From: Candidatus Scalindua sp.
GTDB taxonomy: Bacteria; Planctomycetota; Brocadiia; Brocadiales; Scalinduaceae
Direction of reading: 5' to 3'
Length of the DNA: 32,000 nt
NCBI GenBank assembly: GCA_031316235.1
Contig: JALDRA010000001.1
Span: 2,970,001-3,002,000 of the forward strand
The notes under the pieces were generated by a model. It searched no databases. It was not told the DNA's origin and was given only the letters and a program-made list of their open reading frames with translations. Of this stretch, positions 3,264-30,974 are shown piece by piece (the stretch's first letter is position 1; every line of letters begins with the position of its first letter). Position numbers and translations under genes: made by a program.

Positions 3264-4730
3264 TTGTTTTTACACGAATTAACTGCTAAGCAAATTCGGG
3301 ATAAGATAGTAAACCGGGAAATATCTGCTCTGGAGATAATAGAGAATATTTTTAGTCGGATTAAGCAGAAAGAACCTTTGGTAAAGGCATACATAAGTTT
3401 GGATCAGGAGGGAGCGTTAATAAAAGCAAGAGAGATAGATTTCAAGCTTCAAAATGGGGATGTTGTAGGGAAATTAGCAGGCATTCCTATAGCAGTCAAA
3501 GATAACATTTGTACAAAAGATATGAAAACAACGTGTGCGTCCAGGATTTTGGAGAACTTCGTACCACCTTATGATGCATTTGTGATAGAAAAATTACGGC
3601 AGGAAGATGCCATTATTGTTGGTAAAACAAATTTAGATGAGTTTGCAATGGGATCTACGACAGAAAATTCAGCTTTTCATATTACCCGCAATCCCTGGAA
3701 CACGGATTGTATACCGGGAGGCTCTAGCGGGGGTTCTGCGGCAGCGGTTTCTGCCGATATAGCTTTTATGGCATTAGGTTCTGATACAGGGGGGTCTGTT
3801 CGTCAACCAGCTTCTTTATGTGGAAATGTTGGTTTTAAACCGACCTATGGAAGAGTTTCACGCTATGGTCTAATTGCCTTCGCGTCATCGCTTGACCAGG
3901 TTGGTACTTTTACAAAAGATGTTTTTGATGCAGCATTACTATTACAGGTTATTTCGGGTCATGACTGTTCAGATTCAACATGCTCATCGTTAGGGGTTGA
4001 TGACTATCTGTCAGATATTAACTCTCCGGATGATGGATTACGAATAGGTGTGCCAAGAGAGTTTTTTAGCGAAGGACTTGATTCAGAAGTTAGAAATGCA
4101 GTAATGGATGCATTGGGAATTTATAAAAAAAATGGAGCAAAGCTAATAGAGCTGTCTCTGCCCCATTGTGAGTATGCTATAGCAACGTATTGTATTATTG
4201 CAACGGCAGAGGCTTGTTCAAACCTTGCAAGATATGACGGTGTCAGGTATGGACTCAGAAGTCAATTACCTGATGATAACATAATAGACATGTACAGCAG
4301 GACACGGGCAGAAGGTTTCGGTGATGAGGTGAAAAGAAGAATTTTACTTGGTAATTATGTTCTAAGTTCCGGTTATTATGAGGCGTACTATCTGAAGGCA
4401 TCAAAAGTGAGAAATTTGATAAAAAGTGACTTCGAAGAGGCATTTAGGAATGTTGATTGTATTATTTGCCCCACCTGCCCTACTACGGCCTGTAAAGTTG
4501 GGGAGAAGACAGTTGACCCTCTTGAAATGTATCTGTCTGATGTTTATACTAATCTAGCAAACCTTACAGGGATACCTGGTATTTCTCTCCCTTGCGGTTT
4601 TACAAAGGCCGGGTTACCAATTGGAATGCAAATTTTAGGAAGGCATTTTGAAGAGAAACTGATATTACAGGTGGCCAAATTGTTTGAGAGGGAAACAGAT
4701 TTTCATTTGAAGACACCTAAACTGGATTGA
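3264..4730 (+). CDS. gatA: Asp/Glu-tRNA amidotransferase subunit A
   Basis: 488 aa with the amidase signature GGSSGGSAAAV and KDN motif, in gatCAB gene order. TTG start as given in the ORF track. Confidence 0.95.
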   Translation: MFLHELTAKQIRDKIVNREISALEIIENIFSRIKQKEPLVKAYISLDQEGALIKAREIDFKLQNGDVVGKLAGIPIAVKDNICTKDMKTTCASRILENFVPPYDAFVIEKLRQEDAIIVGKTNLDEFAMGSTTENSAFHITRNPWNTDCIPGGSSGGSAAAVSADIAFMALGSDTGGSVRQPASLCGNVGFKPTYGRVSRYGLIAFASSLDQVGTFTKDVFDAALLLQVISGHDCSDSTCSSLGVDDYLSDINSPDDGLRIGVPREFFSEGLDSEVRNAVMDALGIYKKNGAKLIELSLPHCEYAIATYCIIATAEACSNLARYDGVRYGLRSQLPDDNIIDMYSRTRAEGFGDEVKRRILLGNYVLSSGYYEAYYLKASKVRNLIKSDFEEAFRNVDCIICPTCPTTACKVGEKTVDPLEMYLSDVYTNLANLTGIPGISLPCGFTKAGLPIGMQILGRHFEEKLILQVAKLFERETDFHLKTPKLD

Positions 4731-4743
4731 TGGGATTTTATTA

Positions 4744-6183
4744 ATGGAATATGAAGTTGTAATCGGACTGGAAACTCATGCTGAACTGAATACTGATACA
4801 AAACTCTTTTGTGGATGCAGTACCGCCTTTGGTTCAGAACCTAATACACAAACATGTCCTGTTTGCCTGGGGCTCCCGGGTGTATTGCCGGTGATTAATA
4901 GGAAGGCGTTTGAGCATACGCTAAAAACAGCCCTTGCAATGAACTGCGAGATAAGCAGTTTTATCAATTTTGATAGAAAAAATTATTATTACCCTGATTT
5001 GCCAAAGAATTATCAAATTTCACAAAACTATTTCAACGTTGGTAACAATGGTTTTGTCGAAATAACGGTCCAAGCGAAGAAAAAAAGGATTGGTATACAT
5101 AACGTTCATCTTGAAGAAGATGCTGGCAAGCTTATCCATCCTGAAGCATCAGATGCAAGTTATAGCTTGATTGATTTTAACAGAGCCGGTGTCCCCCTGG
5201 TCGAGATAGTTACAGACCCGGATATGAGAAGTATTGATGATGTTGAAGGTTTTATGCATACATTGAGGAACATGTTATTGTATATTGGTGTATCCGATTG
5301 TAAGATGGAGGAGGGCTCTTTGCGTTTTGAGGCCAGTATCTCACTATGCAGAAAAGGCTCTGATGTCTTTGGTAACAGGGTCGAAATTAAGAATCTTAAC
5401 TCTATGAAAGCCGTGTTGAAAGTATTAGCATATGAAATATCGAGGCAAAAGGAGTTGCTTGATAACGGTGAAAAAATTGTAATGGAAACGAGGCTATGGG
5501 ATGAGGTCGGTGCTGTTAGCAGGAGAATGCGTACGAAAGAAGAATCTCATGATTACCGGTATTTCCCTGAACCAGATCTGGTCCCGATTCTGGTAGACCA
5601 GAAAAATATTGAGGGGATCAGGATAACAATTCCTGAGCTTCCTGATGTAAGACGTCAAAGATTTGTCAATGAATATCTTATTTCTGACTATGATGCTCGG
5701 ATTCTTACCGAAAGTAAATTTCTTTCAGATTATTTCGAAGAGTGTGTGAAATTAACAAACAACTCTCCCAAGGAGTTATCGAATTGGATAATTAACGATG
5801 TCCTCAGGGTTTTAAACGATAAAAAAAAAGAGATCAGGGATTTCATTATCTCACCAAAGATGTTAGTTGAATTAATTGAAATGAAATCAGAGATTGGTGG
5901 AACCATTGCTAAGGAAGTTTTTTCCGAGATGTCTGATACTGGTAAAGATGCTTCAACGGTTATTCGGGAAAAGAACTTAATACCGTTAAGCGATACTGTG
6001 GAGCTGAGCTTGGTTGTATCAAAAATTATTGAAGAAAACCCAAAGGCCATTGAAGATTATGGCAAGGGTAAAGAAAGTGCTTTGTCTTTCCTGGTAGGTC
6101 AGGCAATGAGAACGACAAAAGGTAAAGCGGACCCAAAAATGCTCAAAGTAATTTTCAAAGAAAAGTTGACAAAGATTCAGTAG
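4744..6183 (+). CDS. gatB: Asp/Glu-tRNA amidotransferase subunit B
   Basis: 479 aa. The N-terminus YEVVIGLETHAELNTxTKLFCGC and a C-terminal YqeY-like tail are characteristic of GatB. Confidence 0.95.
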   Translation: MEYEVVIGLETHAELNTDTKLFCGCSTAFGSEPNTQTCPVCLGLPGVLPVINRKAFEHTLKTALAMNCEISSFINFDRKNYYYPDLPKNYQISQNYFNVGNNGFVEITVQAKKKRIGIHNVHLEEDAGKLIHPEASDASYSLIDFNRAGVPLVEIVTDPDMRSIDDVEGFMHTLRNMLLYIGVSDCKMEEGSLRFEASISLCRKGSDVFGNRVEIKNLNSMKAVLKVLAYEISRQKELLDNGEKIVMETRLWDEVGAVSRRMRTKEESHDYRYFPEPDLVPILVDQKNIEGIRITIPELPDVRRQRFVNEYLISDYDARILTESKFLSDYFEECVKLTNNSPKELSNWIINDVLRVLNDKKKEIRDFIISPKMLVELIEMKSEIGGTIAKEVFSEMSDTGKDASTVIREKNLIPLSDTVELSLVVSKIIEENPKAIEDYGKGKESALSFLVGQAMRTTKGKADPKMLKVIFKEKLTKIQ

Positions 6184-6197
6184 TAGATTTCACGCCA

Positions 6198-6398
6198 TCA
6201 GACGTCTTTAGCCTGAATCGTCTTCCGTCCGTTTTCCTGCGATCTTTTTATGGCTTTGTCTATTAAACAATAAACTGTGTCGCTCAGTTCGCTGATGAAT
6301 TCTCCCGATGTATTACAATCATTTTCTTTAATGTATTCTCTGATTTTGCTCGCAACAACAAGTATTTCTCTTTCCTTTTTCTTTACTTTCTTTGCCAT
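6198..6398 (-). CDS. Small histone-fold-like DNA-binding protein (alpha3-truncated bacterial histone / DUF1931-like)
   Basis: 66 aa, with an AAGGAG RBS 6 nt upstream of the ATG. It has a lysine-rich N-terminus. The C-terminal NGRKTIQAKDV resembles the L2/RKT motif of archaeal histone HMfB (AGRKTIKAEDI). The layout LVVASKIREYIKE...NTSGEF...long helix matches alpha1-L1-alpha2. Confidence 0.55.
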   Translation of the reverse strand: MAKKVKKKEREILVVASKIREYIKENDCNTSGEFISELSDTVYCLIDKAIKRSQENGRKTIQAKDV

Positions 6399-6514
6399 GC
6401 GAATCTCCTTGGTTATGACTGATACATAAGTTTGATTTTCGGGATACTATCAAAAAAGTTATAGATGTCAAGTGCTTTTTAGCTCAATTTTTTTGTTGCA
6501 GGATGTAAAAAAAT

Positions 6515-7645
6515 ATGAATATCCGAGAGAAAATATTGTCTAAAGTCAATAGGATTGTTGTAAAAATCGGAACCCATGTACTGACAAACACAGATGGAAT
6601 CCTCGATAATAGTCAGATTATGGAACTGTCGAGGCAAATTATTATGCTTTGCACTCAGGGATACAAGGTTGTCATCGTAACCTCTGGTGCAATTGGAGCA
6701 GGTATCAGGGCATTGGGTCGATCAAGAAGGCCTACTATTCTCCCCGAGCTTCAGGCGGCGGCGGCAATTGGACAGGGTAAACTTATGGAAGCTTATAATG
6801 AATGCTTTAAGAGTCATGGGTACCATGCCGCTCAATTACTATTAACGAGGCAGGACTTTGAAGATCGCCAAAGATATTTGAACACATCTAATACGTTACA
6901 TACCCTGCTACGTTTTAAGACGATTCCGATTATTAATGAAAACGATACTATTGCTATTGACGAAATAGCATTCGGAGACAATGATGTGTTGTCGGCAATG
7001 GTTACAAATCTCCTCCATGCTGATTTATTGATACTTTTATCTTCTGTAGACGGATTATATACAAATTCTCCGAAGCCTGGAGGTAAGAATACCGTTTTGC
7101 CAATTGTTAATGAGATTTCAGATGAAATTAAAAAACTTGCATTTAAACCGAAAACACTGCAGGGTACGGGGGGGATGAAAAGTAAACTTAAGGCTGCCTG
7201 GGATGTTACTAATGCCGGAGAGGCTGTTATTATTGCAAACGGAAAACACCCCGATATTTTACAAAAGATAATGAGGTTTGATGATGTTGGAACGCTGTTT
7301 CTTCCTAGCAAGAAAAAAATAGCCAGCCGAAAACGCTGGATAGGTTTTTCTGTAAGGCCAAATGGGAAACTTTTTATTGATGAAGGCGCATTTGATGCGG
7401 TATACAAGAGAGGGAAAAGTTTACTGCCTTCCGGTCTTGTCAATGTTGATGGGAATTTTGTTAAGGGCGATATTGTATCAATAATGGATACTGATGGAGA
7501 GAAAGAGATAGCAAGGGGGTTGATAAATTATTCAAAGGAAGAGGTCATGAAAATCAAGGGTATGCGAACTTCTTTAATAAAAAAGACTCTGGGGGCAAAA
7601 CCTTATGACGAAGTAATCCACCGTGACAATATGGTTTTGTTGTAA
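6515..7645 (+). CDS. proB: Glutamate 5-kinase with C-terminal PUA domain
   Basis: 376 aa with an amino-acid-kinase fold (VVKIGTHVLT, VTSGAIGAG, NENDT, FGDND) and a PUA-like C-terminus. Confidence 0.95.
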   Translation: MNIREKILSKVNRIVVKIGTHVLTNTDGILDNSQIMELSRQIIMLCTQGYKVVIVTSGAIGAGIRALGRSRRPTILPELQAAAAIGQGKLMEAYNECFKSHGYHAAQLLLTRQDFEDRQRYLNTSNTLHTLLRFKTIPIINENDTIAIDEIAFGDNDVLSAMVTNLLHADLLILLSSVDGLYTNSPKPGGKNTVLPIVNEISDEIKKLAFKPKTLQGTGGMKSKLKAAWDVTNAGEAVIIANGKHPDILQKIMRFDDVGTLFLPSKKKIASRKRWIGFSVRPNGKLFIDEGAFDAVYKRGKSLLPSGLVNVDGNFVKGDIVSIMDTDGEKEIARGLINYSKEEVMKIKGMRTSLIKKTLGAKPYDEVIHRDNMVLL

Positions 7646-7902
7646 ATCCATACATAATTTCAGCAAAAATATTTTTTGCCGGTCCCATTTCAGAGTTTAC
7701 CGGAGTGTTAAATACTTCTCTTTTTACCACCTTAAATCGTACTTTTCTTTACCATTAAGAGATTTTTCCCTTTATGAGGCCGTGAAGGTTTCAGATTCTA
7801 ATATGCTTGACAAGAGATAGATCGAGGGTATATAATCGTAACGTATTTTTGAGAAAATTTGTGAAATTTTACATTTAATAGTGTAAAAGGAGGATTTCTT
7901 TA

Positions 7903-9573: not shown

Positions 9574-12500
9574 ATGATGATATCTAGTACTGGTATGTAT
9601 AACCCAAAGGATCAAAAAAAATATCTTGGTTTAGATATAGGATCCGTGAGTATCAAAGCAGTTGTGGTTAATGATAATAAGGAAGTTATCGAAAATCATT
9701 ACGTAAGGTCCCATGGTCAGCCCATAGAAACGGTGCTTATCGTATTAAAAGATATCCTGAACAGGATTTCTGCTGAAGAGATATATGGTGTGGCTGTAAC
9801 GGGTTCTGGTGGGAAGCTGCTGTCAGGGATAATGAAAATTAGTTTTATCAATGAGGTTGTGGCTCAGAGTAAGGCTACTTCGGTTCTTCATCCGGAAGTT
9901 AAGACAATAATAGAGATTGGTGGAGAGGATTCAAAATTGATTATGCTTGAGCGCGATGAATCCTTTGGGAAGGCAGGCGGTAACGATGGCGCCAGGTTAA
10001 AGGTGTCTGATTTCGCAATGAACACGATGTGTGCTGCCGGTACTGGATCATTTTTGGATCAACAATCGACGAGGATAGGAGTTTCTATAGAAGAGGAGTT
10101 TGGTAAATTAGCTTTAAAGTCCAAGAATCCGCCAAGAATAGCGGGTAGATGCAGTGTTTTTGCGAAATCAGACATGATACATCTTCAACAGGTGGGGACT
10201 GAGATTCACGATATTGTATCAGGGCTCTGTTACGCATTGACGAGGAATTTCAAGAGTAATATAGGAAAAGGGAAGGATTTTGTAAAACCGATAGCATTTC
10301 AAGGCGGTGTCGCTGCAAATGCAGGTATTATTAAGGCATTTGAGGATATACTCGAATTAGATGAAGGGGAACTGATTATTCCTCGATATTTTAACACTAT
10401 GGGTGCTATAGGTTGTGCCTTTGCTTTCATGGAGAAAGGCATCGACGCACCGTTTACAGGGTTTAAGACGATTGAGGCGTACTTGAAGAACCGAAGAGGA
10501 AAAGATACAAATCTAACGAAACTTACTTGTAACAACTATGAAATAAATGTGAGAAATCACATCCTTGAGACGAACGGCAAGGTGGAGGTTTATGTTGGTG
10601 TTGATGTTGGGTCGATCAGTACGAATGTTGTTGTTATTGATAAGGATAGAAATGTACTTGCCAGACGATATTTGATGACGGCGGGGAAACCTCTGGAAGC
10701 GGTAAAGCAGGGGCTATTTGAGGTGGGAGAAGAAATACAAGATAAGGTTGTCGTCAAAGGAGTGGGTGTGACGGGGTCTGGTAGATACCTTACTGGTGAG
10801 TTTATTGGCTCCGATATCGTAAAGAATGAAATAACGGCTCATGCAACTGCTGCAGCTGCAGTAGATAAAAACGTAGATACCATTTTTGAAATTGGAGGGC
10901 AGGATTCTAAATACATCAGCCTGGAAAATGGAGCAATTGTTGACTTTACCATGAATAAGGTTTGTGCGGCGGGAACGGGGTCTTTTCTGGAAGAGCAGTC
11001 TGAAAAACTAGACGTCAACATTAAGCAGGAATTTGGAAAGCGTGCCCTGGACTCATGTTGCCCCTCATCTCTTGGCGAAAGGTGTACCGTTTTTATGGAA
11101 TCAGACCTTAATCATCATCAACAGCTGGGTGTCCCCAAGGATGACCTGTTGGCAGGTTTAAGTTATTCGATCGTCCTGAATTATATCAACCGTGTAGTTG
11201 AAAAGAGAAAAATTGGAGATACTATTTTTTTGCAGGGAGGGGTAGCGGCAAATCGGGGGGTCAAGGCAGCTTTTGAAAAAATAACGGGTAGAGAGATCAT
11301 TGTACCTCCTCACCATGATGTCATGGGGGCTATAGGCTCTGCGATAATATCGATGGAGGAAAAGAAGTGGGAAAATTCACGGTTCAAGGGATTCGATTTG
11401 CGAAAGAGGGCGTATGAAACATCGTCCTTTGTTTGTAAGGATTGTTCGAATGTCTGCGAAATAAGAAAGGTTATCATAAAAGGGGAAGTACCTCTTCATT
11501 ACGGAAGCCGATGTGGGAAATATGACGATGAAAAGAAACTAGCAAGCGGGAAAAATATTCCCCGATTGTTTAACGAAAGGAAAAAAATCCTCTATGAGCC
11601 TTATGTCAAGAGCAGGAGCACAATAAAAATAAAGAAAAAAGAGCGAATCGGTATACCACAAGCTTCTACTTTTTTTGAATTGTTTCCGATGTGGAAAGCC
11701 TTTTTCACAGAATTGGGATTCGAAATTTTAATTTCTAAAAATACAAATAGAGAAGTTATTAATAACGGGTTGGAACATGTTACAGCGGAAACATGCTTTC
11801 CTATCAAGGTTGCACATGGGCATGTTATTGATATGCTGAAAAAAGATATAGACTATCTGTTCTTACCCAGCGTGATAAATATGACGCATGCATCGTCCAA
11901 GGTGACGCACTCTTATGCCTGCCCTTACATACAATGCCTGCCCTATATTATTCGTTCAGCAATAAATCTGGATTCTCCAAAATTCAAGGTATTGCAGCCT
12001 GTAATTCATTTTGAATATGGTGAATTGTTTTTGGATAAGACCTTGCGGCAGATTGCTAAAGAGATAGGGAGAAGAGGTGCGAGGGTTGAAAATGCCATAA
12101 AAAAGGCAAAGGAAACTCAAAATAACTTCTATGGCCGGCTAGAAAAAAGAGGAAAAGAGGTGCTTGATAGCTTAGGTGATGATGAATTTGCCTTGGTCAT
12201 CATCAGCCGTCCGTACAATGGTTGCGATTCGGGTGTTAACATGGATCTGCCTGAAAAGCTCAGGGACCTAGGGGTGTTGGCTATTCCTATGGATTTTCTT
12301 ACTCTTGATTTAGAGGATATATCAAATGACTATCCAAACATGTACTGGAAATACGGGCAAAAGATACTTGCGGCAGCAAGAGTAATTGCACGTGACAAGA
12401 GGCTGTATGGTCTCTACATAACGAATTTCGGCTGTGGCCCTGATTCTTTCATTTCTAAATTTTTCCCTAAAGAAGTTGGTGGGAAACCGTTTTTGACGAT

Positions 12501-17626: not shown

Positions 17627-19261
17627 CTATTCCGGGGCCATAAATGGATATCGGTAATCTGCCGGAGGTGTAAAGGTTTCTTTAATAGTTCTGGGGGTTA
17701 CCCACCGGATCATATTCAGGATACTGCCTGCTTTATCATCAGTTCCGCTTGCTCTGCTTCCTCCGAATGGCTGCTGTCCAACCACCGCTCCGGAAGGTTT
17801 ATCGTTTATATAAAAATTCCCTGCAGCATTCACGAGAATCTTTTCTGCAATGGTAATTGCCTCCCTGCTGCGAGAAAAAATCGATCCTGTTAACCCATAA
17901 GGAGATGTTTTGTCGCACAGATGCAGAGTCTCTTCAAAGGTATTCTCCTCATACAGGTAAACGGTGAGTATCGGGCCGAATATCTCCTCTTCCATTGTAC
18001 GGGAATGGGGATTGGTTGTAACTGCTACAGTAGGTTCAATAAAATATCCCGTACTGCTATCATAGTGCCCTCCACAGAGAATTTCGGTCTCATTAGTGGT
18101 TTTCATGTATTCAATGTATTGTGCAATTTTATCAAAAGCTGCCCTGTCTATTACGGCATTAACAAAGTTACCGAAATCCTCTACATCTCCCATCCTTACA
18201 GTTTTTAGTTCTGAGTGAATGAAGTCCCTTAATTCCGGCCATATACTACAAGGGATATAGGCACGAGATGCTGCGGAGCATTTCTGTCCCTGATATTCAA
18301 ACGCACCTCGTATCAGGGCGGTACCCAACTCCTCGATGCCCGTATCACAGTGAGCAAAAACAAAATCCTTACCGCCAGTTTCACCTACTATGCGGGGATA
18401 ACTTTTGTAATTTCTGATGTTGTTTCCGACGGATTGCCATATATTTTGAAAGGTGCAGGTACTTCCGGTAAAGTGGATGCCTGCAAGGTCAGGAGAGTTT
18501 AAAATGACAGGGCCGATCTCTTCTCCATGTCCGGGGATAAAGTTTATGACACCATCCGGTATGCCAGCTTCCTCGAAAAGCTTCATAACAAGATATGATG
18601 AATAGACGGCGTTTGAAGCGGGTTTCCACAAGACAACATTGCCCATAATGGCTGGAGCGGATGCAAGGTTTGCGGCAATAGAGGTGAAATTGAAAGGGGT
18701 TGAGGCAAAAATGAACCCCTCCAATGGCCGATATTCTAATCTGTTCCAGGTTCCTGTTGATGAGATTGGAGGCTGGTTTTCATAGATCTGCATTGCATAA
18801 AAGGGGTTGAATCGAAGAAAATCAATTAGTTCGCATGCGGAATCCACTTCTGCCTGGAAGACATTCTTGCTTTGGTTCAGCATGGTTGAGGCGTTTAACA
18901 ACGGGCGCCATGAGGAAGAGAGGAGTTCTGCAGCTTTCAGAAAGATTGAAGCCCGGTCTTGCCACTCCATCGTAGCCCATTCCCGGGATGCTTTACGGGA
19001 GGCCTCAATAGCCATTTGTATTTCGTTTCTGCCTGCTTTATGGTAACTACCTATGACCGTTCCATGATCATGAGGTAGGATGCATTTCCCTGTATTTCCC
19101 GTTTTTATCTCTTTTCCCCCAATAATAAGGGGAATTTCTCTCTGATGGTTTCTCAATTCGCTTAACTTTGCCTTTATGGTTCGACGTTCCGGTGTGTTGG
19201 GGGCGTAGCTCTTTATCGCTTCATTGACGGGCAGGTTGAGGTTGAATTTCGCATTTGACAT
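17627..19261 (-). CDS. L-glutamate gamma-semialdehyde (1-pyrroline-5-carboxylate) dehydrogenase, aldehyde dehydrogenase family
   Basis: 544 aa with ALDH catalytic motifs VGETGGKD (Glu) and GQKCSAASR (Cys). Length and N-terminus are typical of stand-alone P5CDH. Confidence 0.85.
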   Translation of the reverse strand: MSNAKFNLNLPVNEAIKSYAPNTPERRTIKAKLSELRNHQREIPLIIGGKEIKTGNTGKCILPHDHGTVIGSYHKAGRNEIQMAIEASRKASREWATMEWQDRASIFLKAAELLSSSWRPLLNASTMLNQSKNVFQAEVDSACELIDFLRFNPFYAMQIYENQPPISSTGTWNRLEYRPLEGFIFASTPFNFTSIAANLASAPAIMGNVVLWKPASNAVYSSYLVMKLFEEAGIPDGVINFIPGHGEEIGPVILNSPDLAGIHFTGSTCTFQNIWQSVGNNIRNYKSYPRIVGETGGKDFVFAHCDTGIEELGTALIRGAFEYQGQKCSAASRAYIPCSIWPELRDFIHSELKTVRMGDVEDFGNFVNAVIDRAAFDKIAQYIEYMKTTNETEILCGGHYDSSTGYFIEPTVAVTTNPHSRTMEEEIFGPILTVYLYEENTFEETLHLCDKTSPYGLTGSIFSRSREAITIAEKILVNAAGNFYINDKPSGAVVGQQPFGGSRASGTDDKAGSILNMIRWVTPRTIKETFTPPADYRYPFMAPE

Positions 19262-19568
19262 ATCGGCTCGCTTTGAAAAAGGGTTTCTTCAAATCTTTGA
19301 GGACTCACTTGATTGTAAAGGGATTTCCATTTTACCAGTAAACAAATCAATCTGTTACCATTTATATGTGGAAGATCTGTGCAGGAAGCACGACAACGAT
19401 AATACCATATGCAGATGAATAATGCAAATTTCAGGTATATTTTTACCATTGATGATAACTCAAACCTCTGTATAATACAGGGCAGGGCTACTGTAGCGGA
19501 TTCAACTGGTTTTGTGAGACTACAGGGGGCGTTTAGTGGAAAACACCTTAAAAGAAATGGAGACCATC

Positions 19569-19850
19569 ATGAAAAAAGCATCGGCACGTCATATCCTGGT
19601 TGATTCAAAGGAGAAATGTGAAGAGATAAAAACCCAGATTGAAAGCGGTGGCGACTTTGCAGATTTAGCAAATGAGCAGTCTCAATGTCCTTCTGGAAAA
19701 CAGGGGGGAGATTTGGGAGAATTCTCACCCGGTCAAATGGTACCGGAATTTGACCAGGTAGTATTCAAAGAGGAAGTTAACAAAGTGCATGGCCCCGTTC
19801 AAACACAATTTGGGTACCATCTTATTGAGATTACAAGTAGAAGTGAGTGA
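19569..19850 (+). CDS. ppiC: Parvulin-type peptidyl-prolyl cis-trans isomerase (PpiC/Par10-like)
   Basis: ~93 aa from MKKASARHILV. CPSGKQGGDLGEFSPGQMVPEFDQVVF...TQFGYHLIEI is near-collinear with E. coli PpiC as I recall it. The ORF track's start at 19536 adds 11 residues, and that extension is probably not real. Confidence 0.85.
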   Translation: MKKASARHILVDSKEKCEEIKTQIESGGDFADLANEQSQCPSGKQGGDLGEFSPGQMVPEFDQVVFKEEVNKVHGPVQTQFGYHLIEITSRSE

Positions 19851-19888
19851 GGTGTTATTCCGTTTCTGTCCGTATGAGCAACTATTCC

Positions 19889-20033
19889 GATACTATGCTA
19901 AAACCGATTTTGTTTCCGGTTTTACCGGAAACAAAATCTTGATGAAGGTATCCCCGGACAGAAAACGCCGAGGACTTTACTCGCTTAATTTTATCTCGGA
20001 TTTTATCCGAAATCCAGTATGAGATGAGTATAT
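19889..20033 (-). repeat. Repeat family A, copy A-1 (full length, inverted orientation, carries a 27-nt internal insertion)
   Basis: Aligns over its whole length with 21579-21694 and 30857-30974. It contains a perfect 15-bp hairpin (19906-19920 / 19924-19938). Confidence 0.85.
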
Positions 20034-20133
20034 CAATGGGGAAGGCACAGATAGCGGGCAGCATGTTCCGCAGACTTTAGGAGAAAGCACAGTTTCTAAG
20101 AAAAAAGAAAATAGTCGTCGAACAAAGAGACAT

Positions 20134-20433
20134 TTGTTGCCGTCACTCTATCCGTGCGAGGTTAAGATCAAGGGTAAGAATTTTAACGCACTCGTGAATA
20201 CGGTTATAATAAATGTGTCCGGTGGCGGGGCAGGTTTGGAGATAATTGGGGTAAGATACCAATCTGATATTAGGGTTGACGAAGAAATCTTACTTGAAAT
20301 TGACACCGGAGCATCAGAGAGGATGAAAATCAGGGCCAGAATAAAGTGGGCTGAGTTGTCTGGATTGAAAAATTCAATGGGAGTTGAGTTCACCGAGCAG
20401 AGAGACATAGAAAAGATTCTACACGTTGTTTAG
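20134..20433 (+). CDS. PilZ-domain protein (possibly 5'-truncated, or using a non-canonical start)
   Basis: The NVSGGG motif (D/NxSxxG) and a beta-rich ~100-aa size fit PilZ. The matching RxxxR motif (RRTKR, nt 20116-20130) is in frame but upstream of the first ATG/GTG/TTG codon. Confidence 0.6.
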   Translation: MLPSLYPCEVKIKGKNFNALVNTVIINVSGGGAGLEIIGVRYQSDIRVDEEILLEIDTGASERMKIRARIKWAELSGLKNSMGVEFTEQRDIEKILHVV

Positions 20434-20557
20434 TGGTTGAACCGAAACTGCCTCTCTGCTGCGCTGCCGTAAAAGTTCCGTAATCCTCAAGTACATTATT
20501 ACATTCCAGTTCAGAAATCAGCGCTCCTTTTGTCGGTCCGGTTTTGGTTCAACCACT
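20432..20557 (+). repeat. Repeat family B, copy B1 (126 nt, inverted termini AGTGGTTGAACCGAAAC / GTTTTGGTTCAACCACT)
   Basis: A 17-bp terminal inverted repeat with 1 mismatch. The internal core is shared with B2/B3. It begins inside the TAG stop codon of the PilZ ORF. Confidence 0.8.
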
Positions 20558-20559
20558 CT

Positions 20560-20618
20560 ATATACTCATCTCATGCTGGATTTCGGATAAAATCCAAAAA
20601 ATAAAGGAGCGAGTATGC
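20560..20618 (+). repeat. Repeat family A, copy A-2 (first hairpin module only)
   Basis: ATATACTCATCTCATGCTGGATTTCGGATAAAATCC...GAGCGAGTATGC matches the 5' half of A-3/A-4. It abuts the right end of B1. Confidence 0.75.
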
Positions 20619-20785
20619 CATTTGTTATTGAAAATTGAGTTGATGCCAGGCCGTATTTCATAAGTCCCTACAGGGTTTCAATACATTCCTGAGGGGTAGG
20701 TAACATTTAAGTTCTTGAATCTAGAAAAATTTGTTATCATGAAGAGATTGAGGTAACGTAAATTTTTCAATTATGGAGATATATC

Positions 20786-20986
20786 ATGTGTCAGATGAGC
20801 GTTATGGTGGATAAGGAGGGGCAGGAGGAGTTAGTAATGGAAAGCGTTACGCAGCTGGAAGTGGTTGAGGAGGGGATCAAGGTGAGTACGTTTTTCGAAG
20901 AACCGAAGCTTGTTTCAGGGGTTGCGGTGAAGACGATTGATTTTCTTGCTGGTAAGTTGATACTTCAAGCAAAAGAGAAAGTCTAG
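20786..20986 (+). CDS. cooT: CooT-family nickel-binding protein (CODH maturation accessory protein-like)
   Basis: 66 aa beginning MC (Cys2 is the Ni ligand in characterised CooT), with a beta-rich pattern ...LEVVEEGIKVSTFFEE...VKTIDFLAGKLILQ resembling CooT. A GGAG RBS is present. Confidence 0.65.
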   Translation: MCQMSVMVDKEGQEELVMESVTQLEVVEEGIKVSTFFEEPKLVSGVAVKTIDFLAGKLILQAKEKV

Positions 20987-21098
20987 ACTCTAAACCTGCC
21001 TTTCTTGCTTTTTTAAGAAGAAAAACAATACCGCTAAGGAAAACAGGAAATTCAGGTAAAGAACTAAGAGTAGCGGTAATTAATTTAATGGAGAAGTT

Positions 21099-21344
21099 AT
21101 GTCAGAACAAAATGTAACAAAAAAACTTCAGGTGATGCTACCTCACTGGATTGAACACAATAACAACCATATAGCTGAGTTCAAAAAGTGGGAGGGTGAA
21201 GTTCGAGCAGAGTCCGGACGGGAACTCGCCAAACTGCTGGAGAAGGCCATTCGTGACATGGAGGAGGCGGGAAAGTCACTCTCCGAAGCACTTGAGAAGG
21301 TTGGCGGTCCATTGAAAGGCGAGAGTGGGCACCATCATCACTAG
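21099..21344 (+). CDS. cooJ: CooJ-like histidine-rich nickel metallochaperone
   Basis: 81 aa, helical. It carries the motif HWIEHNNNH (nt 21144-21170), an exact H(W/F)x2Hx3H, plus a C-terminal HHHH tail (21330-21341). A GGAGAAG RBS is present. Confidence 0.6.
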   Translation: MSEQNVTKKLQVMLPHWIEHNNNHIAEFKKWEGEVRAESGRELAKLLEKAIRDMEEAGKSLSEALEKVGGPLKGESGHHHH

Positions 21345-21346
21345 CT

Positions 21347-21477
21347 AGTGGTTGAACTGACATACCCACCTACTATACTGTGTTGCGGTAAAAATCTCGT
21401 AATCCTCACGGCCTTGAGTACGCTCAGGATCCGAAATTATTACGCATCTTGTTTCTGGCCAATTCTGGTTCAACCAC
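21347..21477 (+). repeat. Repeat family B, copy B2 (131 nt)
   Basis: Termini are AGTGGTTGAAC / GGTTCAACCAC. A 47-nt internal core is ~85% identical to B3. It starts 3 nt after the stop of the CooJ-like ORF. Confidence 0.8.
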
Positions 21478-21578
21478 AGGGTTTCCGTTCAAGCACCAGT
21501 TAGTTGACAAAACCAACCACTCGTATTCGGATTTTTAAAGAATAAGCAATTACACAGAATTTCGTTGAAAAATATGGT

Positions 21579-21694
21579 GTATTTACTCATCTCATACTGG
21601 ATTTCGGATAAAATCCGAGATAAAATTGAGCGAGTATACCTTCACCAAGATTTGGTTTCCGGTAAAACCGAAAACCAAATCGGTTTTAGTATAT
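21579..21694 (+). repeat. Repeat family A, copy A-3 (full length, forward orientation)
   Basis: Two hairpin modules: GTAT..ACTC...GAGTATAC, and GATTTGGTTTCCGGT-AAA-ACCGAAAACCAAATC followed by GGTTTT. Termini are GTAT(TT)ACT / AGTATAT. Confidence 0.85.
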
Positions 21695-21807
21695 CCTATC
21701 TGTAACAATAAATCTGGGTATGAAATATTAGATAAAAGTTTAAAGACCAACTTCATAATTGATTGACCTTATTTTGAATAAAATAGAAAAACAGGGGCAT
21801 TAACACT

Positions 21808-22017
21808 ATGAGTGACGGGATTAAAAGCGGTAAAGAGGTTATTGCCGAATTCTTCGCAGATATTATGAATATAGAAGGGGTAGACAAAAAGACTGTTGAG
21901 AAGCTGACATCCTTGTACAGTGAAGGAAAACTGACTGATACTAATATCCAGAATGTAATGGAGAGACTACTTCAAGAAGAACTGGAAACAATCGAGGAAG
22001 AAGATGGTAAAGATTAA
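21808..22017 (+). CDS. Hypothetical small acidic protein (69 aa), translationally coupled to the downstream ATPase
   Basis: 18 D/E vs 8 K/R, predicted helical. Its last 14 nt overlap the ATG (22004) of the next ORF, and the GAGGAAG RBS for that ORF lies within its coding sequence. Confidence 0.55.
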   Translation: MSDGIKSGKEVIAEFFADIMNIEGVDKKTVEKLTSLYSEGKLTDTNIQNVMERLLQEELETIEEEDGKD

Positions 22018-24430
22018 AACAATCAACATCAGTGGAATCAGGGGTATTAAAAACCCTTTGTCGCTAAACCTGAAGAGCGGGTCGATTATGATTTTTGGCG
22101 AGAATGGGTCGGGAAAAAGCTCTCTGACTGATGCAATTGAATGGTACTATTCAGATAGTGTAAAGCATTTGGTCAGTGAAGAAACAGGATTAACCAAAGG
22201 AAGAGGATCGTTGCGTAATCTATTCATTCCAGATAGTGAAGACGCCTTCATCAGTATTCAGTGTTCCAACAAAAAATTGAATGCAACAAAAACTATTGAC
22301 AGTTCATTGAAGGCTTCCGCCTCCAATACAACAGAAGATTTCAATGATTATTTGATTGCAACTCAATCTGAAAACCTAATTCTACGCTACAGCGATTTGG
22401 TAGAGTTCATTATTGCCTCCAAGACTGATAAGCTCAAGAAACTCCAAAACATTATTGGTTTTTCTGCTGTTGCTGATGTCCGTGATCTTCTCAAAAAGTC
22501 TGCTGAAAAAATCGAGCGCACCATCAAATCGGCCAACTATGATAATCAAAAAAACTCTCAACAATCTGTTGTACTTGAAAATCTCGGGCAAAATGCCTAC
22601 ACTGATGACCAACTTTTTGCAGGAGTAAATCAGCTAATAAAACCGTTGCAGATTAAAAAAGACATAAGATTGCATAAAGATATCCAGGATGTTCTAAATG
22701 CGATTGAAACGAAAGAAGATATAACTCTTTTAGCGCAGGTCAGTTTCTATAAAAAGGTTGGAGAAAACTTAACGGAAATTATCGGGAATATTGACAGTAT
22801 ACACTCAAGCTATAAAGCTTATTACACAATCTACACCGAACTGCAAAAAGACCCTGGAAATATTCAGAAACTACAACTCCTCTCTTTATTGAAAGAAGGA
22901 CAGAGCATTTTGAAAAATGATGTTGTGAAGGATGATTACTGTCCACTCTGCCAACAAGTAAAGAGCAAAATTGAATTGATTAGAGAATTAAATGAAAGGA
23001 TTAAAGAATTAGAGGAACTAGAAGAAGAGAAGAGCAAGTTAGAAGAATGGAGACAGAAAGTAACAGATATTCTGCGAGCCAACATCAATATTATTGAAGG
23101 ACTACTCAAAGAGAAATGTTTCAAAGAGGAGCCGTATGCCACACTTCTTGAGAATATTCAGCAAGTTAAAACCTTCCTGAATGTATTTTCAGATGAACTA
23201 AAAAAGGAATTAATAGCTCAAGACCTAATTCAGGAGCTGAGCAGAATACGGATTGATAAGAAAGTATTATCTGGAATTGCCAGGCAAGTGAAAGGCATGG
23301 CAAAAACGCTCACGGAAAAGAAGAAATTCAATATAAAATTTCAAATCTACACCAAGCTATTTCATGCAGTCACCGCTTACAATCAATATAAAAGCATTAA
23401 AAGAAAACAAGAAATATTAACTAAACAACAAGTGACATTCCAGGTGCTTTTTGCCGATTTTATTAAAAGACAGGAAAAAGCTTTAAATGTGTTTCTGAAG
23501 ATGTTTTCAACAAACATTGATGAATATTACACTACCATGAACCCCAATGAGGGAATAAAGGATATTAAGCTTGTGCCTATCAAGAACAGGGACGATGACA
23601 TGGTAGGAATAACAATTGAGAGTTTCTTCTTTAGTGAGACCAAAACGCCACCAAGCGCTTATTTGAGTGAAAGCCATATCAATTATCTTGGCCTTTCGTT
23701 CTTTTTAGCTTCTGTAAAAGCATTCAATAAGCAGAATAAGTTTTTTGTTCTTGACGATGTGATTTCAAGTTTCGACAGGCCACACAGATCAAGGTTTGCA
23801 AAATTGCTGACTGATAAGTTCGGCGACTACCAGATTCTGTTACTTACACACGAGAAAGAATTCTCTGAATTAGTGTCCAGTGTTGTTAAGAGCAAAGGAT
23901 GGCTAATTCAAGACTTTAAATGGTCACGTGAGAATGGGGTAGGAGTTGAAAACGCTACAACTGACATTAAAGACCGTATTCTCAGGAAATTTGAGAATAA
24001 AGACATAGACGGTCTTGGTAATGATATCAGAGTTTATACTGAAAAGGTAATGAAAGAAATCGCATACAACATAGAGGCCAGAGTGGCTTTTAAGTATAAC
24101 GGAATCAATGAAAAGAGAATGGCCTCTGAACTATTAGATGCTGTTCATAGACAGATTTCAAAGAAGGGAAATGGTTTAAAGGATAAGGCCAACATCCAGA
24201 AACTCAAGGGAATGTCAATGTTCCTTGCCAATATCACGTCTCATGATAATGAGTTTTCTGAAAGCATTGGGGACTTAGCAGCAATATGGGAAGATGTTGA
24301 GAATACTGTTCAGACCTTTTACTGCGATGAGAAAAAATGTAAGAAGTTTATTTCAATCAAGTATTTTGATAATGTGGAAAGCAAAATCCGGTGTGGGTGT
24401 GGTAAGTTGACCTACGATTGGAAGAAGTAA
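22004..24430 (+). CDS. Rad50/SbcC-like ABC ATPase with coiled-coil zinc hook and a C-terminal extension (RloC/PrrC-like, AAA_13-type architecture)
   Basis: 808 aa. Walker A GENGSGKSS (22097-22123). A ~510-aa K/E-rich helical insert carries CPLC (22940-22951) near its midpoint. A signature-like LSESH, Walker B FFVLDD and H-loop LLLTHE follow. The ~190-aa C-terminal region ends in a four-Cys cluster (CDEKKC...CGC). Confidence 0.8.
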   Translation: MVKIKTINISGIRGIKNPLSLNLKSGSIMIFGENGSGKSSLTDAIEWYYSDSVKHLVSEETGLTKGRGSLRNLFIPDSEDAFISIQCSNKKLNATKTIDSSLKASASNTTEDFNDYLIATQSENLILRYSDLVEFIIASKTDKLKKLQNIIGFSAVADVRDLLKKSAEKIERTIKSANYDNQKNSQQSVVLENLGQNAYTDDQLFAGVNQLIKPLQIKKDIRLHKDIQDVLNAIETKEDITLLAQVSFYKKVGENLTEIIGNIDSIHSSYKAYYTIYTELQKDPGNIQKLQLLSLLKEGQSILKNDVVKDDYCPLCQQVKSKIELIRELNERIKELEELEEEKSKLEEWRQKVTDILRANINIIEGLLKEKCFKEEPYATLLENIQQVKTFLNVFSDELKKELIAQDLIQELSRIRIDKKVLSGIARQVKGMAKTLTEKKKFNIKFQIYTKLFHAVTAYNQYKSIKRKQEILTKQQVTFQVLFADFIKRQEKALNVFLKMFSTNIDEYYTTMNPNEGIKDIKLVPIKNRDDDMVGITIESFFFSETKTPPSAYLSESHINYLGLSFFLASVKAFNKQNKFFVLDDVISSFDRPHRSRFAKLLTDKFGDYQILLLTHEKEFSELVSSVVKSKGWLIQDFKWSRENGVGVENATTDIKDRILRKFENKDIDGLGNDIRVYTEKVMKEIAYNIEARVAFKYNGINEKRMASELLDAVHRQISKKGNGLKDKANIQKLKGMSMFLANITSHDNEFSESIGDLAAIWEDVENTVQTFYCDEKKCKKFISIKYFDNVESKIRCGCGKLTYDWKK

Positions 24431-24685
24431 TGGGTAAGCGCAAATCAGTATACTCATATGGTGTTTGCTTACTTTGTTCCATGAATTTTTAAGAATGAGA
24501 AAGAGAAGAAACAGATGCAACGGACTTGCTGGAACGACTTTCTTCCGGAAGTTATCTAGTTTAAACTTCGAAGCCTGCTTCGATACATTAACATCGAATA
24601 CGCGAAAACATCTATTACCGGCTGCGCATATAACCATTACAATCCGATGCCATTCGAATCAAGTCGTTTGCAGGAAAAAATTGAA

Positions 24686-24946
24686 GCAGGCCCTCTTGAT
24701 ATGCCTGAAGAGATTGAAGGGGTCTCTCTTGAGACTCTATTTTTAGAAGAGCTTAGCACCGTTAATGAATAGTATAACATGTGATATAATATTTACTATT
24801 GGAGAACATCGAACAATAGTGAAGTTGATTTTGTTGTATATGGAAAAAAGAGATTAAAGGCTTTTGAAATTAAACGATCACGAAAATTTAAGAGAAAAGA
24901 CTGAAACGGGCTTAAATTATTGTTGAAAGATTATCCCATAGCATAA
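24686..24946 (+). pseudogene. Decayed 3' remnant of a DUF4143-type AAA ATPase gene
   Basis: A single frame reads ...GVSLETLFLEELSTVNE*YNM*YNIYYWRTSNNSEVDFVVYGKKRLKAFEIKRSRKFKRKD*NGLKLLLKDYPIA*. The YYWRT..(E)VDFVV...iEiK pattern is the C-terminal signature of DUF4143 ATPases. There are three in-frame stops and no N-terminal P-loop part. Confidence 0.5.
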
Positions 24947-25010
24947 ATGTTGTTGAACCGGAACAAAAAGTAATACACTTCTGATGTGTTCTGGCTCGGT
25001 CAGGTTGAGG
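24947..25010 (+). repeat. Repeat family B, degenerate/internally deleted copy B4
   Basis: The left end ATGTTGTTGAACCGGAAC matches the B left terminus at ~14/17. The right part TGTGTTCTGGCT...GGTTGAGG resembles the B2 tail TGTTTCTGGCC...GGTTCAACC. It starts 1 nt after the pseudogene stop and ends 6 nt before the nfo ATG. Confidence 0.35.
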
Positions 25011-25861: not shown

Positions 25862-26080
25862 ACGAAAACTACCCATCTACTGCTTTAGGGTTCAGAGAAC
25901 CCTCGCGGTACTAATTCCGGAATCCTCACGTACTTGAGTACGCACCGGTTCCGAAATGATTACGCGCCTTGTATACTCATTTCATAATGGTTTTCGGATA
26001 AAATCCGAGAAAAAACGGAGCGAGTATACCTTCACCAAGATTTGGTTTTAGTATACCTGGGCAGTTTTGGTTCAACCGAT
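25853..26080 (+). repeat. Repeat family B, copy B3, interrupted by an A-family insertion
   Basis: The left end ATTGATTGAACGAAAAC contains the nfo TGA stop. The right end is GTTTTGGTTCAACCGAT. Removing 25971-26056 restores collinearity with B2. Confidence 0.75.
25971..26056 (+). mobile_element. Repeat family A, copy A-4, nested inside B3 (second hairpin deleted)
   Basis: GTATACTCATTTCATAATGGTTTTCGGATAAAATCCGAG...GAGCGAGTATACCTTCACCAAGATTTGGTTTTAGTATAC. It has precise GTATAC ends and no flanking duplication visible. Confidence 0.85.
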
Positions 26081-30856: not shown

Positions 30857-30974
30857 CGTATATATACTAAAACCGATTTGGTTTTCGGCTTTACCGGAAA
30901 CCAAATCTTGGTGAAGGTATACTCGCTCAATTTTATTTCGGATTTTATCCGAAAACCATTTCGAAATGAGTATA
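30857..30974 (-). repeat. Repeat family A, copy A-5 (full length, inverted orientation)
   Basis: Its reverse complement aligns end to end with A-3 (GTATACTCATTTCG...GGTTTTAGTATATATAC). The hairpin is at 30874-30906. Confidence 0.85.

Follow-up and report, generated by a model that had tools for sequence, protein, structure and literature searches.

RloC and Lamassu are the described systems that come closest to the locus treated here. RloC (Pfam AAA_13) is a Rad50-like anticodon nuclease that excises the wobble nucleotide (PMC2610378, PMC3458546). It is a DNA-dependent ATPase under zinc-hook control (PMC3458546, PMC3874168), and its nuclease domain is a divergent HEPN domain; the typical HEPN motifs are R-x4-6-H and E-x3-[KR] (PMC3710099). 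The RloC triad follows the pattern Arg-X3-Glu-X36-52-His, often with a Ser before the His. In the RloC protein of G. kaustophilus, which is 804 amino acids (aa) long, the triad consists of R692, E696 and H737, and the hook lies at C291 (PMC2610378). In Lamassu systems (LmuA-LmuC-LmuB / DdmABC), LmuB is joined by LmuA, whose effector part is followed by a conserved docking domain at the C-terminus, and in most cases by a globular LmuC; these systems sense DNA ends, and the long form of LmuB has an hhhhDD Walker B motif and one CxxC (PMC12663957). Here, we analyse a pair of genes in a 32,000-nucleotide (nt) stretch of a Candidatus Scalindua genome (contig JALDRA010000001.1, positions 2,970,001 to 3,002,000; "the window" from here on, to which coordinates refer unless another locus is named). 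The pair encodes a small acidic protein and a large ATPase that resembles Rad50. We regard its family as a new variant among the ATP-binding cassette (ABC) ATPase/SMC-like sensor-effector defence systems, standing between RloC and Lamassu.

Our analysis suggests that the pair is what survives of a candidate defence cassette that moves horizontally. The GIY-YIG nuclease gene of this cassette is destroyed in the window and the two-gene core is intact. We give this reading a probability of about 0.7. The module is apparently an undescribed candidate anti-phage system. There is no dedicated PADLOC, Pfam or NCBIfam model for the family. In the searchable literature we found neither a system that combines a GIY-YIG nuclease with an SMC-like protein nor this family, although an earlier in silico description within work on ABC-ATPase classification is possible. 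In a 2024 survey of 132 defence systems, GIY-YIG occurs only in three single-gene systems.

A two-gene core and a three-gene cassette

The first gene of the pair (21808–22017, + strand) is an open reading frame (ORF) for an acidic protein of 69 aa with an isoelectric point (pI) of 4.2, as read from the ORF list and the sequence. The second (22004–24430, + strand) encodes the zinc-hook ABC ATPase, 808 aa long, with a predicted C-terminal HEPN-like domain and zinc ribbon. The end of the small ORF, including its stop codon, overlaps the start of the ATPase gene by 14 nt. These are not chance ORFs, because the ATPase has 306 clusters of homologues and 190 of about 185,000 species genomes encode a relative (in a scan of one genome per species). 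Both genes are genuine, and the ATPase, which is 100% identical to protein P0001, belongs to a widespread family. Its length is tightly kept at 802–810 aa within the 306 clusters (58–100% identity), which come from Planctomycetota, Thermodesulfovibrionales, Chloroflexota, Bacteroidota and one Heimdallarchaeota bin.

To compare neighbourhoods we fetched 80 loci (ATPase identity 35–79%), of which the 73 with enough upstream DNA are informative. A small ORF ends at or overlaps the start of the ATPase gene in 72 of these 73 loci, and the overlap is mostly 8–14 nt. The median small protein has 64 aa and a pI of 4.6. Its conserved core in these loci reads iKSGke..d.FF..I..ie.vD......l..Ly..gKltd.N..N.l. 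Nearly all of the 112 representative clusters are stand-alone proteins of 55–80 aa, and the small protein has no NCBIfam match. A first-pass annotation of the window, made from the letters alone, had reported the 69-aa ORF, the 808-aa ATPase and their overlap at the coordinates that we find, and had proposed the small acidic ORF as a partner of the ATPase. Conservation and translational coupling of the small ORF bear this proposal out. Judged from its position, a small ORF in front of a toxin-like gene, with overlapping stop and start, fits the layout of a type II toxin-antitoxin pair.

We also searched for fusions of the small protein. A metagenomic protein of 200 aa (P0445) has the small protein in frame with the N-terminal head of the ATPase, joined by a linker of about 45 aa. 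This record is truncated, and the fusion may be real or a frameshift artefact. The other long matches in this search were spurious repeats.

Clustering of all flanking ORFs revealed one more conserved gene and no fourth. It encodes about 150–156 aa, has the same orientation and lies directly upstream of the small ORF in 70 loci; a tblastn search added one more (L010), which brings the count to 71 of the 73 informative loci. Most loci without it are cut by contig ends. Among 27 diverse products of this gene, 25 match Pfam GIY_YIG_2 (PF20815, best E = 6e-8) and 13 match GIY-YIG (PF01541), and no other family recurs. The residues G31-x-Y33, Y53-I-G55, R67, H71, E109/E112 and N130/N131 are invariant, and some members are labelled GIY-YIG proteins in NCBI and UniRef records. 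A profile search against PDB sequences gave no match beyond noise, and there is no NCBIfam match. On these profile matches and residues, the intact homologues of the gene are best described as encoding a GIY-YIG nuclease.

The nuclease gene is divergently oriented yet adjacent on a Brucella anthropi plasmid (ATPase identity 28%) and in Parvularcula marina; this orientation is that of Alphaproteobacteria. Because the gene stays adjacent after inversion, the three-gene linkage outlasts rearrangement. Normally, then, the unit in the subfamily of the window is a three-gene cassette of GIY-YIG nuclease, small ORF and ATPase.

Loss of the nuclease gene in Candidatus Scalindua

Only the last ~37 codons of the nuclease gene are left in the window, and the catalytic core is absent. 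The remnant consists of two fragments. The first (21560–21580, + strand) holds the codons for FVEKYGV and marks the 5' limit of homology to the intact gene. Its 20-nt block 21561–21580 is identical to positions 7669–7688 of L021, a syntenic Scalinduaceae locus with an intact three-gene set. An insertion of ~108 bp then splits the remnant (21581–21688, no strand assigned). It resembles a miniature inverted-repeat transposable element (MITE), contains internal hairpins, shows up as a gap where the window and L021 align collinearly and is apparently flanked by a (G)TA duplication. The second fragment (21689–21781, + strand) comprises the last 30 codons and the stop. Its DNA is 84% identical to L021 from 7687 onward, and an in-frame TGA (21764–21766) stands in place of a conserved Trp codon. 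With intact nuclease homologues as queries, tblastn matches 21689–21778 (E = 1e-12 to 1e-11, 83–87% identity) and finds no upstream part of the gene anywhere in the window.

The comparison with L021 also shows what the window lacks. The two loci are collinear in three blocks: 18556–21374 corresponds to L021 1–3683, 21689–24460 to L021 7687–10451, and 24995 onward to L021 12812 onward. Between 21374 and 21689, about 4 kb of the L021 sequence (3684–7686) has no counterpart. This segment contains two small genes (L021 4037–4324 and 4312–4725), which we take to be a HigB/HigA-like toxin-antitoxin pair, two ORFs of 196 and 430 aa, and most of the nuclease gene. Three lesions have thus destroyed the nuclease gene of this genome: the deletion of its 5' part, the insertion of a MITE and a stop codon within the frame.

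The first-pass annotation had seen the pair as an orphan, self-contained module, with no SbcD/Mre11-type nuclease nearby. It was right that SbcD is absent, but it missed the GIY-YIG remnant at 21560–21781, and the orphan description has to be given up for a subfamily that normally has three genes with the nuclease first. We rejected a two-gene orphan as the ancestral state of the window copy, since 71 of 73 loci have the GIY-YIG gene ahead of the pair and the window itself still holds a piece of it.

Other relatives of the window copy lack the full gene, too. L002 (Scalindua/Brocadiaceae S225) retains only a remnant of it, and L003 and L035 have none. Among copies without the nuclease gene, the pairwise ratio of nonsynonymous to synonymous substitution rates (dN/dS) of the ATPase is 0.23–0.26, compared with 0.14–0.20 among intact systems. 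A three-point estimate from these values gives ~0.24 for the terminal branch of the window and ~0.22 for L021. Of 69 full-length members, all or all but one agree at 93 columns, and at none of these does the window ATPase have a private substitution. The pair is still intact and under purifying selection.

Pairs without a nuclease gene are also found much further away. Four plasmids carry full-length relatives of the ATPase with about 22% identity (E = 1e-27 to 1e-34). The Phaeobacter plasmid carries a pair-only relative. On the Bradyrhizobium plasmid the pair follows a DUF262 gene and has a HipA gene close by, and on the Roseibium plasmid it lies between DarT and RES genes. On plasmid pHTIA of Halorhabdus tiamatea (L090, 3305–5969) it lies between pglX and pglZ, annotated as BREX-5, and may be either an accessory of BREX-5 or a defence module embedded in it. 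In all four cases an overlapping acidic ORF of 57–69 aa (pI 4.0–4.8) is followed by an ATPase of 816–822 aa with a CPxC hook at ~310, and there is no detectable GIY-YIG gene near any of the four pairs. Since these distant relatives have the small ORF and the ATPase only, the pair looks like the deeper core of the module. This core, an acidic protein of ~60–70 aa and a coupled Rad50-like ATPase of ~800–820 aa, is conserved from Bacteria to haloarchaea. To this extent the two-gene unit of the first-pass annotation survives: in the distant relatives the pair alone is conserved.

One could argue from these plasmids that the two genes suffice by themselves as a toxin-antitoxin or abortive-infection module, which is the view of the first-pass annotation. 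The ATPase with its HEPN-like domain would be the toxin and the small protein the antitoxin, the GIY-YIG gene would be dispensable and the window copy functional. We consider this unlikely, but it deserves to be taken seriously. The pair-only layout is the rule in the four distant relatives, and an acidic ORF that comes first and shares an overlapping stop and start with the next gene is found in many toxin-antitoxin pairs. Moreover, the pair is intact in three Scalindua-group genomes without the nuclease gene, at the dN/dS values of 0.23–0.26 given above and with no lesions at conserved sites, and RloC acts as a stand-alone effector. A gene that is present in 71 of 73 subfamily loci and remains linked even after inversion is, however, no casual neighbour. 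The two-gene state of the window is also secondary, the product of deletion, MITE insertion and a stop codon.

It is improbable that the locus is only a decaying relic whose two ORFs have ceased to function or to be expressed, for the following reasons. First, neither the 2.4-kb ORF nor the 69-aa ORF that overlaps it is broken, and all family-invariant residues are kept. Second, the terminal-branch dN/dS of ~0.24 is like that of the intact L021 lineage, and there are zero private substitutions at the 93 conserved columns. Third, two other Scalindua-group genomes that lack the nuclease gene also have an intact pair. What makes one think of a relic is the state of the surroundings: only fragments are left of the nuclease gene upstream and of the island genes downstream, ~4 kb of the L021 island is gone, MITEs occur throughout the region and no convincing promoter was found.

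Architecture of the ATPase

The ABC head of the ATPase is split by a long insert. Walker A (GENGSGKSS, aa 32–40; 22097–22123, + strand) has the invariant residues G32, N34, G35, G37, K38, S39 and S40. The insert, an antiparallel coiled coil of aa ~130–515 (22391–23548, + strand), appears in the AlphaFold model as long helices from 129 to 512. At its apex lies the zinc hook CPLC (aa 313–316; 22940–22951, + strand), in a beta-hairpin (310–321) between the two arms. CPLC is invariant in 22 aligned ATPase sequences, and across the superfamily the hook reads CP[LFMV]C at ~310–314. The C-lobe (23663–23854, + strand) contains the signature LSESH (554–558), the Walker B/D-loop FFVLDDVISSFD (580–591) and the H-loop LLLTHE (612–617). 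Thus, all motifs of the ABC head (Walker A, signature, Walker B/D-loop and H-loop) are present and invariant.

Pfam assigns aa 4–628 to SMC_N (E = 1.4e-16, 61 bits) and also matches AAA_23. The full-length AlphaFold model has a predicted local distance difference test score (pLDDT) of 67.6. Foldseek relates it to generic cohesin/SMC proteins, Rad50 and LmuB (9hqu and 9ux7 among the top matches), at low TM scores. From motifs, profile match and model, the window protein is predicted to be a zinc-hook ABC ATPase of the Rad50/SbcC type. The first-pass annotation had arrived at the same split ABC head, coiled coil and CPLC hook; the SMC_N match, Foldseek and the AlphaFold helices agree with it. 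Its positions for GENGSGKSS (32–40), LSESH (554–558), FFVLDD (580–585) and CPLC (313–316) are exact, and LLLTHE is present but at 612–617 instead of 611–616. The extra C-terminal region of ~190 aa that it noted is there as well, along with four invariant Cys that it did not mention.

This C-terminal region consists of a helical HEPN-like domain (aa ~650–770; 23951–24313, + strand), delimited by the AlphaFold model and conserved residues and holding a probable RNase active site, and of a four-Cys element that resembles a zinc ribbon (C774, C779, C797 and C799; 24317–24427, + strand). We assessed conservation of residues 630–808 in 106 sequences, including a divergent alphaproteobacterial clade found with a Brucella query. 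R676, E680, K684, N702, E703, R705, S746, H747, C774 and C779 are invariant in this set, and E709, D748, C797, C799 and W806 are at least 90% conserved; N743 and N749 are also conserved. Superfamily-wide, the residues that remain are R676-x3-E680-x3-[KR], N743-x3-H747-x-N749 and the CxxC...CxC ribbon. The motif NEKR705MxxE709 is confined to the GIY-YIG-linked subfamily.

Modelled separately, the C-terminal region reaches a pLDDT of 84.8 and a predicted TM score (pTM) of 0.79 and forms a helical bundle followed by a small four-Cys beta element, the strands of which (aa 784–806) have a pLDDT of ~95. In Foldseek against the PDB, the matches with the best TM are all HEPN proteins, none of them significant: 1o3u, 2q00 (prob 0.93, TMt 0.63), 2hsb, 1wol, the HepT toxin 6m6u and the Csm6 protein 5yjc. 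Foldseek of the domain against a viral structure library gave nothing meaningful. E-x3-[KR], the second HEPN motif, is conserved superfamily-wide (E680-x3-K684). In the GIY-YIG-linked subfamily, the conserved R705-x3-E709-x37-S746-H747 fits the published RloC pattern. Taken together, residues and model point to a probable RNase-type domain.

Comparison with Lamassu, RloC and other systems

The top PADLOC matches of the window ATPase are LmuB models (E = 7.6e-22 and 5.6e-21, ~75 bits). They reach only aa ~1–629; one of them places aa 2–629 on profile positions 3–597 of 611. Weak PADLOC matches to PtuA and AriA fall in the P-loop region. One could take the cassette for a subtype of Lamassu, with the GIY-YIG gene as LmuA, the small protein as a mini LmuC and the ATPase as LmuB. 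The LmuB structures among the Foldseek matches point the same way, and so does the operon order of effector, small middle gene and ATPase. Both ATPases are derived from SMC/Rad50, the window protein combines an hhhhDD Walker B with just one CxxC, as does long LmuB, both families sit in defence islands, and DNA-end sensing is a plausible common trigger.

Nonetheless, we find a Lamassu subtype quite doubtful. The cassette nuclease has ~150 aa, consists of the GIY-YIG core only and lacks the C-terminal docking domain of LmuA; the effectors listed for Lamassu do not include GIY-YIG. LmuC is globular and resembles helix-turn-helix proteins, whereas the small protein here has 64 aa. LmuB lacks the C-terminal HEPN-like and zinc-ribbon module. 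The ~75 bits to LmuB are no better than the 61 bits to SMC_N, and a sister clade reaches 48 bits to AAA_13. In the Foldseek ranking, cohesin, SMC and Rad50 structures stand as high as LmuB. Distant relatives, and with them the deeper core of the family, have no separate effector gene. We rejected Lamassu membership, as neither the nuclease nor the small protein has a PADLOC match to LmuA or LmuC at E ≤ 1.

RloC is the other close comparator. In both families, a single chain of ~800 aa combines a split ABC head, a coiled-coil insert and a CxxC hook near ~300 with a C-terminal helical nuclease-type domain bearing R-x3-E...(S)H. Both also have a sporadic, conflict-linked distribution with restriction-modification (R-M) linkage only at times. 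The window family differs in its four-Cys ribbon, its small acidic partner and, in the subfamily, its GIY-YIG partner, and its universal residues are R676/E680/N743/H747 at wider spacing. In the comparison by hhalign we used an ATPase-family profile of 22 sequences and one of 105, the latter against a profile of 7 RloC sequences. Against bona fide RloC, both BLASTP and hhalign align only the ABC C-lobe (hhalign E = 2.5e-5). Pfam AAA_13 has no match in the window ATPase at E ≤ 1, nor in the L060 and Brucella members at E ≤ 0.01. Alphaproteobacterial members pass its cutoff (47.9 and 39.2 versus 36 bits), at model positions ~236–600 of 713 only, which cover the hook and C-lobe region and not the nuclease part. 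We found no PDB relative of PrrC/RloC.

Could the ATPase still be a true, divergent anticodon nuclease of the RloC family that has acquired accessory genes? The numbers are certainly suggestive: 808 versus 804 aa, the hook at 313 versus 291, R705/E709/H747 versus R692/E696/H737 with a Ser before the His, and alphaproteobacterial members above the AAA_13 cutoff. We think that membership is rather improbable, to about the same degree as for Lamassu. The window protein and other tested members have no AAA_13 match, and the matches that do occur skip the nuclease part. RloC has neither a zinc ribbon nor conserved partner genes. In two Chitinophagaceae-type loci (L067 and L077), the gene directly upstream of the cassette (5044–7332) is that of a bona fide RloC, with CxxC at aa 278, an AAA_13 match at E = 2.5e-112 and the C-terminal motifs PNIVRRFLEMY...LHHFSHF. 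Because this RloC adjoins the cassette, RloC and the window family are distinct, coexisting genes.

We therefore rejected RloC membership by sequence, BLASTP and both hhalign profiles having matched the ABC C-lobe only. On motifs and models, the likeness to RloC would be one of architecture, motif and fold class. The first-pass annotation had named RloC as the comparator. Layout and triad pattern bear the comparison out, but membership in RloC is not demonstrable by sequence.

Other sensor-effector systems are more remote. PrrC, an anticodon nuclease silenced by an R-M system, also joins an ABC ATPase to a C-terminal RNase-type domain with R/E/H residues, is restrained by a partner and serves as an abortive backup defence. 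However, it has ~400 aa, lacks coiled coil and zinc hook and always lies in an R-M locus, and the partner that restrains it is the R-M enzyme (type Ic), not a 65-aa protein. Septu (PtuA/PtuB-HNH), PARIS (AriA/AriB-TOPRIM), Gabija and OLD share with the cassette an ABC ATPase sensor, a small nuclease effector and a place in defence islands. Their ATPases are of the OLD type, in which the coiled coil is short or missing and there is no zinc hook, their nucleases are different, and they have neither a HEPN-like fusion nor a small acidic partner.

Genomic context and distribution

The genes that flank the cassette vary from locus to locus. They are rich in OLD-TOPRIM, AAA_15 and AAA_21 ATPases (Old, GajA and AriA models). 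Other common neighbours are components of type I, IIG and III R-M systems, HEPN, SIR2, HerA, Schlafen and SocA/Panacea. Integrases, Bro-N proteins and relaxases represent mobile elements, and toxin-antitoxin genes are also frequent. There is no Mre11/SbcD in the window, nor among the 25 most frequent Pfam families per batch of neighbour proteins (144 + 148 = 292). The first-pass annotation had held that homologues consistently beside sbcD or core repair genes would refute a conflict system; what we find beside them are defence and mobile-element genes. Its conflict role for the module is in line with these neighbourhoods, with the missing SbcD and with the patchy, mobile distribution. Its remark that the pair is not linked to R-M genes is true of the window, but relatives often adjoin R-M or BREX genes.

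Relatives also occur in Nitrospirota, on plasmids of Alphaproteobacteria and in Archaea. No homologue was found in phage genomes with tblastn. The ATPase of a Cloacimonadota locus (L001) is 79% identical to that of the window, and copies from Aminicenantes and Deltaproteobacteria bins are similarly close. An identity of 79% between Scalindua and Cloacimonadota implies horizontal transfer, and the pattern points to recent transfer between phyla, among organisms of anaerobic sediments and reactors.

With Rad50-Mre11 and SbcCD, the family shares the head, the coiled coil, the zinc hook and the pairing of an ATPase with a nuclease gene. It differs in the missing Mre11/SbcD partner, the extra C-terminal domain, the mobile and patchy distribution and a much shorter coiled coil. 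A housekeeping SbcCD-like repair complex, in which the GIY-YIG nuclease takes the place of SbcD, is hardly credible despite the Rad50/SbcC-type parts and the DNA-repair names or double-strand-break-repair Gene Ontology terms of some database records: genomic context and distribution rule it out, given relatives in only 190 of ~185,000 species genomes, near-identical copies across phyla, copies on plasmids and beside relaxases, defence-island neighbourhoods without Mre11/SbcD, and an ATPase gene that stays when the nuclease gene is lost.

A possible mode of action

How could such a module work? By analogy with RloC and Lamassu, the ATPase would dimerise through its zinc hook and its ATP-engaged heads and would survey DNA for ends or aberrant structures that arise during infection. 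An ATP-dependent conformational change could then release the C-terminal RNase-type domain, plausibly a tRNA or anticodon nuclease as in RloC. In intact cassettes, the GIY-YIG DNase might be released as well, and the outcome would be abortive infection. The small acidic protein would be a stoichiometric partner that binds the ATPase, either as an antitoxin-like inhibitor or as an adaptor. The two-gene remainder in the window may work like RloC.

A fuller version of this picture is a mobile immune module in which a zinc-hook ATPase carries its own HEPN-like RNase and a zinc ribbon and is regulated by an acidic protein of ~65 aa. The large subfamily with the GIY-YIG DNase would possess dual RNA and DNA effectors, and Scalindua would be a natural DNase knock-out with its core under selection. 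We put this forward tentatively, as something that falls a little short of an even chance.

A number of observations weigh against our reading of the pair as the core of a defence cassette. The best E value among the HEPN matches of the C-terminal model is 0.18. The first HEPN motif, R-x4-6-H, is absent, and N743-x3-H747 is found in its place. R705 and E709, which fit the RloC triad, are not conserved in the pair-only clade; the universal residues are R676/E680/H747, and their spacing from R676/E680 to H747 is 66 residues, beyond the published RloC range of 36–52. When the C-terminal domains are compared with RloC by hhalign, the result is E = 0.31 over 11 columns, an alignment that pairs N-x-x-R-x-x-x-E of RloC with N673-x-x-R676-x-x-x-E680. 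The small proteins of close and distant clades share only size, charge and position. The signal of purifying selection on the pair may for the most part have arisen before the nuclease gene was lost. Upstream of the window pair there is no convincing promoter, and a promoter and terminator scan gave fewer matches than in shuffled sequence. Finally, the module is a candidate for defence, and its RNase or tRNase activity is an inference.

The family is of interest beyond this locus. For RloC, the way in which a zinc-hook, DNA-responsive ATPase gates a tRNase has been obscure since 2008. The family would provide natural variants for studying how Rad50-like DNA sensing couples to effectors that target RNA and DNA. 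Its members are annotated only as hypothetical proteins or AAA family ATPases, and hence current defence annotators probably miss it. The region itself, from an anammox bacterium, is a defence island undergoing erosion, and in it the gene of an effector nuclease has been inactivated by MITE insertion and deletion.

Other features of the region

The erosion is not confined to the nuclease gene. Downstream of the ATPase lie a decayed fragment of a 264-aa ORF (24575–24690, + strand; blastn against L021 11025–11140, where the intact gene spans 10635–11426) and one of a gene for a 380-aa AAA_14/DUF4143 ATPase (24686–24954, + strand; blastn against L021 12376–12644 and L003 4292–4560). The latter gene is intact in L021 (11602–12741) and in L003 (3518–4666), and its fragment is the decayed ATPase pseudogene that the first-pass annotation had recognised. 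Both fragments (24575–24954) come from the variable island in which the module lies and are no part of the module itself. The island, which lies between a gene for an 81-aa protein and nfo, is eroding in this genome.

The 81-aa protein (21099–21344) ends in GESGHHHH, is kept in L021 (3401–3652) and marks the upstream edge of the variable island. A 333-aa ORF of L021 (1872–2873) has no counterpart in the window.

The MITE-like repeat of ~110 bp is present in at least five copies or fragments in the 32-kb window, scattered through intergenic regions, which bears out the repeat-dense segment of the first-pass annotation. Copies are found at 21576–21695 (the insertion in the nuclease remnant), 30862–30954 (− strand), 25974–26048, 19898–20030 (− strand) and 20563–20595, and another lies in L003 at 5764–5876.

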